Shown in pieces: positions 32,212 to 44,474 of a stretch of DNA of 64,000 nucleotides (position 1 is the stretch's first letter; every line of letters begins with the position of its first letter). Source of the DNA: Escherichia phage vB_EcoD-Elw. The notes below the pieces were generated by a model, which worked only from the letters and a program-made list of their open reading frames with translations, made no database searches and was not told the origin of the DNA. A program made the translations under genes and the position numbers. The stretch is taken from sequence record OR621298; one strand, given 5' to 3'.

Positions 32212-32622
32212 ATGACTACTCCAACTCAGTGGACTGATGAACTGTTCGAAAAAATGTCTTCCGAATACGTTGCTCGTATGGAGCAATTCCCAGAGGATGA
32301 ACGTCCTGGTGTTAGCATGGAAATTGTTAGCGAAATTGCCCAGGAAAATGGTGTAACTCCGAACGGTTTTCGTATGAAGCTAACTAAAGCAGGTTTGTAC
32401 ATCAAGAAAGCTGCTGGCTCTGCTTCTAAATCTAGTGCATCTACTGGAGAAAAAGCTTCTGGTGGTTCTCGCACTTCTAAAGCTAAAGCTCATGCCGACC
32501 TTCGTTCCGCATTCTCTGATGCTGGCCTAGCACCAGATTTTCTGGATGATGCAATTATTGACAAACTGACCGGTAAAGCGGCTGCTCATCTGGCAGAAGC
32601 AATCCGAGCTATCACTAAGTAA
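32212..32622 (+). CDS. hypothetical protein (136 aa)
   Basis: ATG 32212 with AAGGAAAT RBS. Confidence 0.6.
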   Translation: MTTPTQWTDELFEKMSSEYVARMEQFPEDERPGVSMEIVSEIAQENGVTPNGFRMKLTKAGLYIKKAAGSASKSSASTGEKASGGSRTSKAKAHADLRSAFSDAGLAPDFLDDAIIDKLTGKAAAHLAEAIRAITK

Positions 32623-33400: not shown

Positions 33401-33589
33401 ATGAAAGTAACACTTCCAAAAATTCAAGCAAAGTTAAATCTAGTATCGAATGCTAGAAATAACTATCTAGATAACTTTGGTGGAATCAACGATAAAGCGT
33501 ACAAAGATGCGTGGTTGAAAGAAGCACAAGAGTTAGCCGATCTCATTGCTCAGTATAATAAAGAACTACAGGTAGAAATGAATGACTAA
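33401..33589 (+). CDS. hypothetical protein (62 aa)
   Basis: ATG 33401 with AGAGGA RBS. Confidence 0.5.
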   Translation: MKVTLPKIQAKLNLVSNARNNYLDNFGGINDKAYKDAWLKEAQELADLIAQYNKELQVEMND

Positions 33590-34553
33590 TGTAAAAGACT
33601 TTATTAAACGTTGCCAAGAAGCATATTATCAAGGTATGTCTTTAATCTCTGATGAGGAGTATGATTGCCTGGTAAAACGCTTCCCACTAGAAGAAGAGAT
33701 CGGGCCTAAGGGCGATATTCCACATCTGTATCGTATGTATTCTTTACAGAAAGTTTATTATAATCGTGGAGATAAACCCCCATTTAACCCATTAGGTCAG
33801 GTAGAAACTGACAAGTTAGATGGTTGTGCGATTTCTCTACTATATATTAATGGCGAATTTGTTCAAGCACTAACTCGTGGTAATGGTATTCTAGGGAATG
33901 ATGTCACAAGCAACGTAAGATTGCTGAACATTCCTAAAAAGATTTCCCAAAAAGTACCTACTCAAATCACTGGTGAAGTTCTAATTACAAAAGAAGTAGA
34001 AAATAAACGTAACTTTGCCTCTGGTGCTATTAACCTAAAAGATAGTGATGCTTTCGTACAACGTATCGGGGAAGGTGGTTTAATCTTCGTTGCATACGGT
34101 ATCCAGTGTTCTGCTGAATCTGTAGGTATTACAGAATCATATTTAAAAGATATGCTTTGGCTAGAGAATGAAGACTTCTTAACAGTTGTTAATGTGCGTT
34201 CCTTCTTTAGATGGATTCCGACGGACGGTAAAGTTGTTCGTATTAATGACAACAACAAATTCTTCCGAGAAGGCTGGACTAATAAATTCCCTCGCGGGGC
34301 GTTCGCTATTAAAGAGGATGAAGAAGGAGAGATTACAACTCTTACTAAAGTTGAATGGCAGGTAGGGGCTTCTGGTAAAGTAACTCCAGTTGGTTATTTC
34401 GAACCGGTAATTATTGATGATGCTACAATTGTTAAAGCGACTCTTAATAACGTTGATTATATTAACTCTCTCGATCTAGAGATCGGTTGCCAGATTCGAG
34501 TGATTCGTGCTGGTGGTGTAATCCCGTGCATAGTAGAGCGAGTATACTATTAA
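33582..34553 (+). CDS. NAD-dependent DNA ligase, N-terminal (adenylation) subunit
   Basis: 323 aa; KxDG adenylation motif in KLDGCAISLLYINGEFVQALTRGNG and an OB-fold-like C-terminal part; separate ORF from the Zn-finger/HhH/BRCT part. Confidence 0.8.
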   Translation: MTNVKDFIKRCQEAYYQGMSLISDEEYDCLVKRFPLEEEIGPKGDIPHLYRMYSLQKVYYNRGDKPPFNPLGQVETDKLDGCAISLLYINGEFVQALTRGNGILGNDVTSNVRLLNIPKKISQKVPTQITGEVLITKEVENKRNFASGAINLKDSDAFVQRIGEGGLIFVAYGIQCSAESVGITESYLKDMLWLENEDFLTVVNVRSFFRWIPTDGKVVRINDNNKFFREGWTNKFPRGAFAIKEDEEGEITTLTKVEWQVGASGKVTPVGYFEPVIIDDATIVKATLNNVDYINSLDLEIGCQIRVIRAGGVIPCIVERVYY

Positions 34554-34754
34554 TACATAACCCTTTGCTACCCATCTACCATATAGGAATTATAAAGTGG
34601 TTATTGACATTTTCGCCGCTTAGGTATATACTATTATCATTCAGTTGAGGGATAGAAAGTTATGGCGAGGGTAAGCAAAGTTAGTTAAAATTGTAGTTGC
34701 TAAATGCTTAAATACTTGCTATAATATTTATATAAATTGATAAGGAAGAAATTT

Positions 34755-35535
34755 GATGAAAATCGAAATTCCAACACAATGTCCCTCTTGTGGTTCTAAG
34801 CTAGATCTTGTCAACGGACAATTATTCTGTCGTAATAAGTCCAACTGTCCAGCGCAATCAAGCAAGTTAATTGAGAACTTCTGTTCAAAAATGAAGTTAA
34901 AGGGCTTTGGCCCAAAAACTATTGAGAAGCTGGAGCTGACGAAGATTTCAGAACTATTTTACCTAACCGAAGAAGATTTGGTTAGAGCCGTGGGTAGCAA
35001 GGTTGCCGCTAAGTTAATTAGCGAATTAAATACTAAAGTTCGCGGAGACATTGACTTTGGTTCAGTTCTCGGTTCTTTAGGAATCCCTCTAATTGGAGAG
35101 GTTGCAGCAAAGAAATTATCCCAAAATTGCACTAGCTTTCACGATGTGAAGGCTGACGGCAAGGCTGGAGAAAATTACAAAGCCTGGCTAAATTCCCCAC
35201 AAGGCAAGGATGTTATTAAACTACCGTGGAAATTTTCAACTGGTATTAAGGGCACTAAAGCTGACGTCATCATTACAGATGAATTAGTTGCCCAGCCAAA
35301 TGGAATCGCGGTATGTATTACCGGATCTTTGCAAGATTTTGCAAATCGAACGGATGCAACAAACTATTTAGAAGGTCTAGGATATACGGTTAAGAAATCC
35401 GTTACCAAAGACGTCAAATACCTAATCTGTGAGGATGAATCAAAACGTTCTTCCTCATCTTATAAGAAAGCCGAAACGAATGGGATAGAAATCCTGTCGA
35501 TTAAAGAACTATTGGAGAAAAATAATAATGTCTAA
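34755..35535 (+). CDS. NAD-dependent DNA ligase, C-terminal (Zn-finger/HhH/BRCT) subunit
   Basis: Start at ATG 34755 (AAGGAAG RBS); Cys4 finger CPSCGS...CRNKSNCPAQ, HhH-like region, BRCT-like C-terminus. Confidence 0.8.
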
Positions 35536-36295
35536 ACTGAACTGGAACGTAGAAGGTGTAACCGAGTCTCTGAAAGCAAAAGCCACTGCTCTGGGTGTTT
35601 CTGTAATCTCTCAAGAACAGGTAGCTGCTATCGCTGCTGAACTGGCTGCTGAAACTGGCAAAGATGTTACTGCTCGCTCTGTTGGCTCTAAACTGCGTAA
35701 AGAAGGTTTTGAAGTACAGAAAGCTAACGAAGTACAGAAATCCCCGTGGACTCCTGAGCAGGAAGCTGAACTGGTTGATTTCCTGAACGCTCATGCTGGT
35801 CAGTATACCTATGCTGAAATCGCTGCTGCTGTAGCTGGTGGTCAGTTCGGTGCTAAGCAGGTACAGGGTAAGATCCTGAGTCTGGAAATGACCGCTTCTG
35901 TTAAACCAACTGAAAAAGCTGCTGCTGTTCGTTCCTTTACTCCGGATGAAGAAACTGATTTTGTTAATCAGGTTGTTGCTGGTGCTACTATTGAAGCTAT
36001 CGCTGCTCACTTCGGCCGCAATATCAAGCAGATCCGTGGTAAAGCTCTGAGCCTGCTTCGTGAAGGTCGTATTGCTGCTATGCCGGTACAGGAAACTTCA
36101 AGTGCTAAAACTCGTGAAGATCTGTTAGAAGGTCTGGATCTGGTTAACATGACTGTTGCTGAGATCGCTGAGAAAACCGGTAAGTCTGAGCGTGGTGTTA
36201 AATCTATGCTGTCTCGTCGTGGTCTGGTTGCTAAGGACTATGATGGTGCCGCTAAGCGTGCTAAACTGGATGCAAAAGCTGCGGCTGCTGAATAA
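35528..36295 (+). CDS. Ala-rich protein with three HTH-like repeats (255 aa), probably abundant DNA-binding protein
   Basis: Three related segments (VSVISQEQVAAIAAELAAETGKDVTARSVGSKLRKEG; ATIEAIAAHFGRNIKQIRGKALSLLREG; MTVAEIAEKTGKSERGVKSMLSRRG); strongly E. coli-like codon usage; followed by a strong terminator. Confidence 0.65.
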   Translation: MSKLNWNVEGVTESLKAKATALGVSVISQEQVAAIAAELAAETGKDVTARSVGSKLRKEGFEVQKANEVQKSPWTPEQEAELVDFLNAHAGQYTYAEIAAAVAGGQFGAKQVQGKILSLEMTASVKPTEKAAAVRSFTPDEETDFVNQVVAGATIEAIAAHFGRNIKQIRGKALSLLREGRIAAMPVQETSSAKTREDLLEGLDLVNMTVAEIAEKTGKSERGVKSMLSRRGLVAKDYDGAAKRAKLDAKAAAAE

Positions 36296-36312
36296 TCTGG
36301 TAAATTAAACCT

Positions 36313-36346
36313 AAGGGGAGGGGGCTATGCTCCTTCCCCTTTTTGC
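36313..36346 (+). terminator. rho-independent terminator (GC-rich 10-bp stem plus U-run)
   Basis: GGGGAGGGGG..CTCCTTCCCC stem with the ATG at 36327 in its loop, followed by TTTTT. Confidence 0.6.
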
Positions 36347-36377
36347 ATTTAGAAGGCACGAAAGCGTGCAAAGGAGA

Positions 36378-37850
36378 ATGACCTTGTTTAACGTGCAAGC
36401 TGTAGTGTTGAAGATGCTTCTAGCTTCCGAACAGAAGCAAATAGCATTGGAAACATTCTCAAAACTGCATAAAGATCATTTTAATGACGCTTTCTCCTCA
36501 ATTTACCAAGCCGTCCAGAATTATTATAAAAAATATAACACAATGCCGTCCATTGACGCACTTATGCTTGAAGCTAATAGGAACGCCCGCCTTTCTCAAG
36601 CTCTAGTCGTCTTAGCTAACACTCAAATTCCAGAAGTGAGCATGGAACAGGCACTTGAAGTCCTAGAAGCCGAATATACACAGGATTTATTCCTGAAGCT
36701 TCTAGAAACAGACGTGCTTCAAGATTTAACAATGCTGGATCAGGGAGAAATTCTCAACCGAGTTGCCTCCCTTCACTTAAAATTAGAAGAGAAAGTAACG
36801 AATACTGGAAAAGTATTCAACGCAGATAACATGCGTATTTTCCAGAGAGAAGAAGATACCAAACTGAACTTAATCGCTCTTGGTATTTGTAATGAGTTCG
36901 ACGCTCAAATTGGTTTAGCTCGCACAGAAACGTTACTGCTTGGTGGTTGGCGTGGTACTGGTAAATCCATTATCTGTTCAAACATACAGGTTCAGCAATA
37001 TTTGAATGGAGATATTGCTCCATACTTCTCAATTGAGATGAAAGAACACGAAGTATTTAGACGTAATCTAGCCATGTTAGCTGGTGTATCAGCACTAGCA
37101 ATGCGTAATAATACTCTAGAAGGTGCAGCTCTGTTGAGATTAGCCAGAACTAGAGCCAGAATGTTTAATGGTGGTGAAGAGCTTTTTGATAACTTCGTTA
37201 AACAGTACACGATGGCTAAGATGAGTGATTTCTACGATATGGAGAGTAAGCTAATAGAGGGATATGAACTACATACTCCTATGATTATCGTTTATGACCC
37301 TGAACTGTCCATTACAACAGTTGACGTAGAATTAAATAAATTAGTTGCTAGATATGGTGATAAAGTTACAGTAGCTTTACTGGACTATATTAACCAAACC
37401 CGACTTCCAGATTCTAAAACCATTGATATGTATGACTGGAAAGAACAGATGGTTGTTAGCTCGTCTTTCAAATCTATCTGCCAGAAACATAACGTGGCTG
37501 GTGTAGCTCCTTACCAGATCGATCAAGATGGTAGAACACGTATGTCAAAGGGGATTCTTGATTCCGCAGACATGGCTGCTAATCTTAATGCTGCAAAAGC
37601 TGATAATGGTCAAGGTGCTATTATGTTTGACTTCGTTAAGACTCGTTCTTCTGATAGCGTGAAGTTTATGCCTAAGATGAACTGGGAAACTCTGCGAATG
37701 GATAATACAACTAACCTAGCAATGGAAGATATATCTCAAATGGAAGCTGAGTTCGTTATCCCTATTGAGAAGGATAAGCCGGCTCAACCTAAACGTGCTA
37801 AGAAAGACAAAACTGAAAATTTAACAGGTGAACAGGCCAGCGATATATGA
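36378..37850 (+). CDS. DnaB-like replicative helicase (start uncertain)
   Basis: Walker A GGWRGTGKS and Walker B-like IIVYDPE; longest ORF starts at ATG 36327 inside the terminator hairpin; ATG 36378 follows AAGGAG with a very short spacer. Confidence 0.65.
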   Translation: MTLFNVQAVVLKMLLASEQKQIALETFSKLHKDHFNDAFSSIYQAVQNYYKKYNTMPSIDALMLEANRNARLSQALVVLANTQIPEVSMEQALEVLEAEYTQDLFLKLLETDVLQDLTMLDQGEILNRVASLHLKLEEKVTNTGKVFNADNMRIFQREEDTKLNLIALGICNEFDAQIGLARTETLLLGGWRGTGKSIICSNIQVQQYLNGDIAPYFSIEMKEHEVFRRNLAMLAGVSALAMRNNTLEGAALLRLARTRARMFNGGEELFDNFVKQYTMAKMSDFYDMESKLIEGYELHTPMIIVYDPELSITTVDVELNKLVARYGDKVTVALLDYINQTRLPDSKTIDMYDWKEQMVVSSSFKSICQKHNVAGVAPYQIDQDGRTRMSKGILDSADMAANLNAAKADNGQGAIMFDFVKTRSSDSVKFMPKMNWETLRMDNTTNLAMEDISQMEAEFVIPIEKDKPAQPKRAKKDKTENLTGEQASDI

Positions 37851-43426: not shown

Positions 43427-43711
43427 ATGCTTACAGAGCCTGATGCTCATCAATTATTGGTCGGTTCCTCATTCATTTTGAATGAATCAACAATAGTTGA
43501 TAATCCAAATAAATTGTCTAATAGACAACTGGCAGAATATCTAGGAATTTTAAGTCTACGAAATTATGCCGAATACAAGTTTACAAACGATCCTAGTTTG
43601 GACATACAATATGTTCCAGTATGGATACCACGTTTAGTAATCGACACTAACCCACTAATCGCAATTAACAAATCGAAATTAATCTTTAAAGAGGAAATAA
43701 AATATGGCTAA
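43427..43711 (+). CDS. hypothetical protein (94 aa)
   Basis: ORF with weak RBS; ends overlapping the start of the next gene. Confidence 0.35.
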   Translation: MLTEPDAHQLLVGSSFILNESTIVDNPNKLSNRQLAEYLGILSLRNYAEYKFTNDPSLDIQYVPVWIPRLVIDTNPLIAINKSKLIFKEEIKYG

Positions 43712-44474
43712 GTCTTGGGGCGAAACTACTGGCGGTTCTAACGATAAAATCGAATTCCTGAAGTTCAACAACGGTATCACTCGTGTTCGTATCGTTTCTG
43801 GTGTTCTTCCACGTTATGTCTATTGGCTGACTAATAAAGAGGGTAGCGTAGCTCCTTTCGAATGTCTTCGTTTCAACCGTGACAAAGAGAGCTTTGTTCG
43901 TGGTAAAGCCGATCCGGTTCATGAGATGGGCTTCTTTGAGAAAGAGCTGGATAAAGACGGTAATCGTGTTCCGCTGAAACCGAAGAAAAACTATATCGCT
44001 TTTGTTATTGACCGTTCTGATAACAAGCTGAAAGTAATGGAAGTCAAGGCTACTATTCTGAAAGGCATCCAGTCTATCATGAAGCAGTTGAACCTGGCAA
44101 CTCCGTTTGATATTGATATTTCTATCGAGAAAAAAGGTAAAGGTTTCGATACTGAGTATGATGTACAGCAGATTGCTGCTATGCAGTTCCAGATTAAGCT
44201 GCAAGATCCTAACAGTGCGGAATCTAAGCAATATGCTGCGGATGTAGATCTGATCGGTGAAGCTATGTGTGATGAAGATGGTGACATCATTAAGTTCGAA
44301 AAAGTTCCTTCTCTGGAACAAACCTATCCGGTTCCTACCTATGAAGAGCAGAAAGAAGCAATTCAAGCCTTCATGGAAGGTCGTGAGAATAAAGATGATG
44401 CCAAATCTGGTAACAGCAATGCTGGTTCCCAGAAAGGTATTGACCAAGAAGCTGCAAGCGATCTGGACGACTAA
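43704..44474 (+). CDS. abundant acidic-tailed protein, putative single-stranded DNA-binding protein
   Basis: 256 aa; strong RBS AAAGAGGAAATAAAAT; E. coli-like codon usage; acidic C-terminal tail ...QEAASDLDD; followed by a terminator. Confidence 0.6.
   Translation: MAKSWGETTGGSNDKIEFLKFNNGITRVRIVSGVLPRYVYWLTNKEGSVAPFECLRFNRDKESFVRGKADPVHEMGFFEKELDKDGNRVPLKPKKNYIAFVIDRSDNKLKVMEVKATILKGIQSIMKQLNLATPFDIDISIEKKGKGFDTEYDVQQIAAMQFQIKLQDPNSAESKQYAADVDLIGEAMCDEDGDIIKFEKVPSLEQTYPVPTYEEQKEAIQAFMEGRENKDDAKSGNSNAGSQKGIDQEAASDLDD

Follow-up and report, generated by a model that had tools for sequence, protein, structure and literature searches.

Gene D5 of a T5-like phage, a predicted conserved intrinsic terminator at its 3' end, and the probable TTG start codon of the downstream helicase gene

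According to the literature, the D5 protein of phage T5 binds double-stranded DNA, and both replication and the expression of late genes depend on it. The T5 RefSeq record lists it as a DNA-binding protein that is needed for the replication of DNA and the transcription of late genes and has a role in the shut-off of some early genes, and the function of D5 appears in the title of the study by McCorquodale et al. 1979 (J Virol 29:322), as this is cited in PMC12630848. In a 2026 preprint, the type IX retron-Kva2 is found to be triggered by T5 D5, described as a monomeric, 26 kDa helix-turn-helix (HTH) protein that is toxic upon over-expression; in that work, AlphaFold3 predicts the binding of D5 to the multicopy single-stranded DNA (msDNA) of retron-Kva2 through its HTH, purified D5 remodels the retron complex as judged by mass photometry, and one escape phage carried four changes in D5 (G53D, W74*, V149I, G232D). 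We report here on the D5 locus in a stretch of 64,000 nucleotides (nt) from Escherichia phage vB_EcoD-Elw (sequence record OR621298; the whole stretch is referred to as the window), with an emphasis on the hairpin that follows D5 and on the start codon of the adjacent gene for a DnaB-like helicase.

Judged by its sequence, the window belongs to a T5-like phage (Tequintavirus) with 99% identity to sequenced relatives. The 1.1 kb around D5 and the hairpin share 99% DNA identity with many T5-like phages (Tequintavirus, Epseptimavirus); in 506 records, 80% or more of this segment is covered. The open reading frame (ORF) at 35528-36295 is gene D5 (T5.118): it occupies the D5 position of the T5 RefSeq genome in the same slot between ligB and the helicase gene, its product of 255 amino acids (aa) has the same length as T5 D5 and is 99-100% identical to it, and it matches PHROG 323 ('transcriptional regulator, D5-like') over residues 1-253 with E = 1.4e-71. 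There is hence no difference of substance between the two proteins; they represent the same gene in close relatives. Among the 759 D5 homologues that were found, most have 240-257 aa, and both the full-length homology and a place in the early replication cluster with the ligase B subunit on one side and the DnaB-like helicase on the other mark the window ORF as a member of this family. The locus as such is already known, since it comprises a well-known gene and what we take to be an ordinary conserved terminator, and the current understanding of the phage is left unchanged; the chief value of our analysis is a correction of the annotation.

The hairpin after D5 and the helicase start codon

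A hairpin begins 17 nt after the D5 stop codon; its 13-bp stem contains eight G-C and two G·U pairs, carries the three-nucleotide loop TAT, and runs into the U-tract UUUUUGCAUUU, two U's of which close the stem (Table 1). The predicted folding energy is -22.4 kcal/mol for the RNA of the plus strand and -14.6 kcal/mol for its reverse complement, the plus-strand hairpin being the stronger one because of the G·U pairs. The element thus possesses the hallmarks of an intrinsic (Rho-independent) terminator, a GC-rich stem-loop with a U-tract on the transcribed strand and 3' of a stop codon, and it is the structure that is conserved, not the sequence. When a stem of at least 9 bp together with a T-run was sought within 120 nt of the D5 stop, a terminator-type hairpin was found in 34 of 42 distinct relatives; the number expected from dinucleotide shuffles is 0.05, and among 396 segments of 120 nt taken at random from these loci, 5 contained a hairpin with a T-run. 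The stems have 30 different sequences, nearly all of which include G·U pairs, and each of the nine pairs next to the loop shows four to six pair types; this covariation table of fixed geometry is descriptive only, the hairpins having been selected for pairing, and the controls for chance are the shuffles and the random segments. Because the hairpin and its T-run are kept while the stems are diverse and contain G·U pairs, we read the element as a conserved intrinsic terminator that would act on the plus-strand transcript. It has so far been unannotated, and a scan of positions 35300-36600 against Rfam (E <= 1) returned no RNA family.

A scan of the 42-nt gap between the terminator and the helicase gene (36342-36383) detected no promoter-like site, and the TTGCAT sequence at 36344 was discarded as a promoter candidate because it is without a -10 partner. 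This gap contains a small second hairpin (GCACG-AAAG-CGUGC, -7.2 kcal/mol) directly 5' of the Shine-Dalgarno (SD) sequence of the helicase gene. Short GC hairpins also occur here in phages of Serratia, Klebsiella and Pectobacterium; this second hairpin could serve as a processing site, as a 5' stabiliser or as a ribosome standby site.

We suggest that translation of the helicase most probably starts at TTG 36384 (TTG-TTT-AAC-GTG-CAA), a codon that follows the SD sequence AAGGAG at an ideal spacing of 7 nt. In all other genera the protein begins with M-x-N-V/T-Q-A-V-V-L-K or, for two Vibrio groups, with M-S-I-N-T-Q. Every relative has its start codon two or three codons ahead of N-V/T-Q, and this is the position of TTG 36384 in the window. 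The codon used there is ATG in most relatives, GTG in one of them (L036) and TTG in the T5-like phages, and in the relatives outside the T5 group stop codons close the reading frame just upstream. Particularly informative is L032, a T5-like sequence from IMG/VR in which a 193-aa HNH_3 homing-endonuclease gene (2269-2909) lies between D5 and the helicase gene. It replaces the spacer that is equivalent to window positions 36296-36386, so that the hairpin and two in-frame ATG codons further upstream in the window (36327 and 36378) are all gone. The helicase gene of L032 reads ATG-TTT-AAC-GTG-CAA, its ATG being the codon of window position 36384; it overlaps the stop of the HNH gene and is preceded, two codons upstream, by an in-frame TAG. 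Since L032 lacks the additional N-terminal residues and its helicase remains intact, these residues are dispensable. L032 brings another terminator-like hairpin of its own (AAGGAGAAC-ttcg-GTTCTCCTT). Furthermore, two manually curated records, Sw2 with an explicit ribosome-binding site (RBS) and PHB06, have the helicase start at the TTG.

Several observations weigh against the combination of a terminator and a TTG start. Under the simple criterion used here, eight of the 42 relatives are without a hairpin, and a terminator is annotated at this place in none of three T5 GenBank records. T5 RefSeq, AY587007 and many automated (pharokka-style) annotations let the helicase begin at ATG 36327, and the second in-frame codon, ATG 36378, is stronger than the TTG and has a predicted probability of being unpaired of 0.89, as compared to 0.26. 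The literature on T5 transcript mapping and terminators yielded nothing usable and gave neither transcript 3'-end nor protein N-terminus data for this locus; because of this, we infer termination and the use of the TTG from the comparative evidence described above.

The most serious competitor is initiation at ATG 36378, two codons 5' of the TTG (M-T-L-F-N-V-Q), either alone or together with it. This codon is in frame in all T5-like sequences that were examined, is predicted to be mostly unpaired and, being an ATG, is inherently better suited to initiation than a TTG. However, it stands just 1 nt after GGAG (36373-36376), and SD-led initiation needs a spacing of roughly 5-9 nt; it has no counterpart in any other genus or in L032, and the curated annotations prefer the TTG. 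We therefore regard its use as unlikely.

A second competing explanation concerns the hairpin, which might mainly be a processing or stability element of the D5 message (a block to 3' exonucleases or an RNase III site), with transcription continuing unimpeded into the helicase gene. Stable 3' hairpins do protect mRNAs, and a helicase gene without a promoter of its own implies that substantial read-through must occur. On the other hand, the U-run that directly follows the stem in the window, as well as in the 34 relatives, is a hallmark of intrinsic terminators that a stability hairpin does not need, and the two roles are not mutually exclusive. It is quite unlikely, in our view, that stabilisation is the principal function of this element.

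The idea that the helicase starts at ATG 36327, and is made only when the hairpin that hides this codon and its SD sequence is melted, for instance by read-through or coupling, can draw on the longest ORF, on the start given in T5 RefSeq and many other records, and on a GGAG 6 nt upstream of the ATG, but it is hardly tenable: this GGAG has a probability of 0.001 of being unpaired in the -22.4 kcal/mol stem, the 19-residue extension is absent from all relatives outside the T5 group, where stop codons close the frame, in L032 an HNH gene occupies the whole region and the helicase starts at the downstream codon, and a different in-frame ATG in the G-rich stem of another relative shows that such look-alikes arise by chance. 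The relative in question is L039, which resembles Pectobacterium phages; its hairpin begins 22 nt after the D5 stop, and the in-frame ATG within its stem (AAGGGGATGGG) creates a false helicase extension of 24 codons. Since L039 carries a different stem ATG, stems of the GGGGATGGG type evidently yield combinations of an SD-like sequence and an ATG by chance, and the same annotation trap has arisen independently.

Most likely, therefore, ATG 36327 does not serve as a start codon; we consider it, together with its GGAG, a chance by-product of the G-rich terminator stem and not a regulated start. The original prediction had rightly described a terminator hairpin with an ATG at its loop and an SD sequence in its stem; its title, in which the hairpin is said to sequester the start codon of the following gene, is misleading in this light. 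It had offered two possibilities for the helicase, and the one in which translation starts further downstream is borne out by the conserved start position, by L032 and by Sw2, so that structural gating need not be invoked. Its sequence observations are largely correct, and the sequestered start is most likely an artefact of annotation and not a means of regulation. The T5 reference record and many T5-like genomes would, on this evidence, contain a helicase that is annotated 19 codons too long, from within the terminator hairpin; the corrected start matters for studies on the expression of the T5 helicase and for modelling of the T5 early operon.

Codon usage and modular architecture of D5

The D5 gene stands out by its composition and codon usage. 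Alanine accounts for 44 of the 255 residues (17%), and when the frequency of optimal codons (Fop), calculated with an established list of optimal E. coli codons, was scored for 59 non-overlapping window ORFs of at least 90 aa, D5 ranked at the top with a value of 0.83 (mean 0.49; z = 3.9). Its effective number of codons (ENC), 30.2, is the smallest among these ORFs. The bias is evident from the Ala codons (GCT in 39 of 44 cases), the Leu codons (CTG in 17 of 19) and the Arg codons, all 12 of which are CGT or CGC. The neighbouring genes have lower Fop values (ligB, 0.42; helicase, 0.49; primase, 0.46). Extreme codon bias is a family-wide property of D5: of 74 distinct loci, 72 have a D5 ENC below those of the genes on either side (median 32 vs 51). 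The Ala-rich, strongly E. coli-like coding sequence that had been noted from the DNA alone is thereby confirmed, and the proposal of an abundant DNA-binding protein is right and agrees with the PHROG 323 and RefSeq assignments, with the retron preprint, with the family-wide codon bias and with mass spectrometry of virion preparations of the T5-like phage phiR2-01, in which D5 was among the most abundant proteins. D5 is not a known component of the T5 virion, and its presence in these preparations would fit a DNA-bound protein of very high abundance.

Two further window ORFs attracted our attention in these comparisons. The ORF at 32212-32622, at the position of T5 D3 ('DNA binding protein'), has the second-highest Fop (0.72) of the 59 ORFs, and that at 43704-44474, which lies where T5 has D11 ('single strand DNA binding protein'), has the second-lowest ENC (33). 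T5 RefSeq annotates terminators shortly after D3 and D11 and none after D5. A 169-aa, Ser-rich ORF is present on the minus strand within D5 (35501-36010); in all likelihood it results from the GCT- and CTG-rich codon usage of D5.

An AlphaFold2 (AF2) model of D5, built from an alignment of 57 sequences (A1), has a mean predicted local distance difference test score (pLDDT) of 94.6 and a predicted template-modelling score (pTM) of 0.56. It contains three-helix units at residues 11-58, 76-118, 139-178 and 205-231, followed by a C-terminal helix (240-254). Where three HTH-like repeats had been proposed, the structure prediction thus points to four three-helix HTH modules, and we describe D5, on the basis of this model, as a four-fold array of homeodomain/Myb-like HTH units on short linkers. 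The recognition helix of module 1 carries a conserved R-S-V-G-S-K-L-R-K motif, and the matches of this module to HTH families of Pfam are weak; module 2 is Myb/SANT-like, begins with W-T-P-E-Q-E and possesses an invariant Q-G-K motif. That the repeats are internally related holds for modules 2 and 3, which share 40% identity over 48 aa (BLASTP, E = 3e-6) and whose sub-alignments are matched by hhalign with a probability of 96.5% (E = 1e-9); module 3 is clearly a duplicate of module 2. It holds less well for modules 1 and 4, where the kinship to the others is weak and at the profile level (hhalign 62% for repeats 3 and 4, R3-R4, and 43% for R1-R4), and BLASTP gave no alignment of modules 3 and 4.

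The predicted units resemble a Myb-type three-helix bundle in which helices 2 and 3 form the HTH. A profile of modules 2 and 3 matched Myb proteins of known structure in the PDB with E-values from 3e-4 to 9e-3, and GcrA with E 1.4; the likeness of D5 to the GcrA-type HTH is one of structure only. Myb repeats have a triad of regularly spaced Trp residues that D5 lacks, and the score of the whole protein against Pfam Myb (PF00249; 17.6 bits, with 12-14 bits for isolated modules) is below the gathering threshold of 24.4, on which account D5 was not assigned to the Myb family. Module 4 matches Sigma70_r4_2 with 28.8 bits (cut-off 25.7) through residues 204-230, which correspond to profile positions 23-49 of 54. 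A role of D5 as a sigma factor was also rejected, as the region-4-like HTH is partial (half of the profile) and a Pfam scan of D5 gave no match to sigma-70 region 2. With the whole chain as a query, Foldseek found nothing better than E = 0.1 in the PDB, a weak result that is attributable to the loose arrangement of the four modules (pTM 0.56), and the PDB sequence search gave no match below E = 0.56. The top PDB profile match, 8vd6 ('CAP REPEAT'), was regarded as an artefact; it is a designed repeat protein in which one 21-residue stretch was matched five times.

Neither the four-module description nor the family-wide codon bias is stated in the D5 papers that we examined. Residues G53, W74 and G232, which are altered in the retron escape phage, fall into nearly invariant columns of alignment A1; three of its changes map to modules 1, 3 and 4, and the fourth (W74*) introduces a stop near the beginning of module 2. 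Because the escape changes distribute in this way, the four-module view of D5 may help to interpret the work on the retron-Kva2 trigger.

Neighbouring genes and a model for the expression of the locus

Downstream of D5 lie the genes for the DnaB-like helicase (T5 D6), a primase and a DNA polymerase, and the order ligB-D5-helicase-primase is kept across the Demerecviridae, including Klebsiella, Pectobacterium, Serratia and Vibrio members. Two separate ORFs encode the NAD-dependent ligase, one for an adenylation/OB part and one for an HhH/BRCT part; between them lies a 200-bp spacer (34554-34752). The helicase stop codon overlaps the primase start in the window (37847-37850), from which hegJ, the HNH endonuclease gene in the helicase-primase interval of T5 (NC_005859, 69614-70147), is absent; the homing endonuclease content of the replication cluster thus differs between close relatives.

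Table 1. Features of the D5 locus and their coordinates in the window
Feature	Coordinates	Strand	Basis
ligA, first part of the split NAD-ligase	33582-34553		
Promoter-like site, sigma-70, TTGACA-17-TATACT, 11/12 matches	34604-34632	+	promoter scan; T5 P-K28b
Promoter-like site, sigma-70, TTGCTA-17-TATAAT, 10/12 + TG	34697-34725	+	promoter scan; T5 P-K28a
ligB, second part of the split NAD-ligase	about 34756-35535		
GGAG, SD-like sequence of D5, 10 nt 5' of the ATG	35514-35517	+	sequence; RBS there in Sw2 record
Gene D5 (T5.118), 255-aa Ala-rich, codon-optimised dsDNA-binding early protein	35528-36295	+	PHROG 323; T5 RefSeq; codon scores
Predicted HTH module 1, residues 8-62 (helices 11-22, 29-43, 49-58)	35549-35713	+	AF2; alignment A1
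Predicted HTH module 2, residues 72-122 (helices 76-88, 95-101, 109-118)	35741-35893	+	AF2; alignment A1; profiles; BLASTP
Predicted HTH module 3, residues 135-182 (helices 139-150, 155-162, 166-178)	35930-36073	+	BLASTP; hhalign; AF2
Predicted HTH module 4, residues 197-237 (helices 210-217, 221-231)	36116-36238	+	Pfam Sigma70_r4_2; AF2
Predicted C-terminal Ala/Lys-rich helix, residues 240-254	36245-36289	+	AF2
Predicted intrinsic (Rho-independent) terminator; stem 36313-36325/36329-36341, loop TAT, U-tract 36340-36350	36313-36350	+	
GGAG in the 5' arm of the terminator hairpin	36317-36320		
In-frame ATG in the terminator hairpin (loop and first base of the 3' arm), probably spurious start of the longest helicase ORF	36327-36329	+	T5 RefSeq; other records
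Small second hairpin	36356-36369	+	
AAGGAG, SD sequence of the helicase gene	36371-36376	+	sequence; RBS in Sw2 record
DnaB-like replicative helicase (T5 D6), 488 aa, probable N-terminus M-F-N-V-Q-A-V-V-L-K	36384-37850	+	Pfam DnaB_C; PHROG 19

The ligA-ligB spacer contains two promoter-like sites, and T5 RefSeq has promoter features at the positions equivalent to both of them (offset 31782); AY587007 names the two promoters T5P36 and T5P37. They are likely the source of a ligB-D5 transcript. The D5 ATG overlaps the ligB stop codon (ATGTCTAA), with D5 starting 8 nt before it, and the D5 leader is A/T-rich and weakly structured, its local fold amounting to just -4.9 kcal/mol.

We envision that the strong early promoters (P28b/P28a) would co-transcribe ligB and D5, and that host-optimal codons in conjunction with the unstructured, A/T-rich leader would lead to a very efficient translation of D5. 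The hairpin and its U-tract would end most of the ligB-D5 transcripts and probably also stabilise their 3' ends. Because the 42-nt gap holds no promoter-like site, helicase and primase would be expressed only from those transcripts that read through the terminator, and the helicase, initiating at a weak TTG behind AAGGAG and encoded by ordinary codons, would be made in small amounts. The terminator, the weak start codon and poor codon usage probably act jointly in setting a high level of D5 and a low level of helicase and primase. The efficiency of termination, expression by read-through and the actual use of the TTG are what we infer in this scheme; taken as a whole, the identity of D5, the terminator, the TTG start and the production of much D5 and little helicase-primase form an explanation that we hold to be highly probable.

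One might go further and propose that the phage actively regulates read-through of the conserved D5 terminator in the course of infection, through a factor of its own or through coupling to the translation of D5. We consider this very unlikely; if it were true, the terminator hairpin, the second hairpin and the weak TTG would constitute a device for the timing and stoichiometry of helicase and primase across the Demerecviridae, and not a passive attenuator.

A well-known precedent for the proposed arrangement is the rpsU-dnaG-rpoD operon of E. coli, in which an attenuating terminator between rpsU and dnaG sets the ratio of their expression. As in that operon, a highly expressed upstream gene in the D5 locus is followed by a GC hairpin with a U-tract and then by replication genes that would be expressed at a low level through read-through. 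The downstream gene is that for primase in the rpsU-dnaG case, and those for helicase and primase in the D5 locus, in both instances with poor codons and weak initiation signals. Unlike rpsU-dnaG, the D5 locus is part of a phage early operon, its downstream gene probably begins with TTG, and its termination and read-through are predicted ones.

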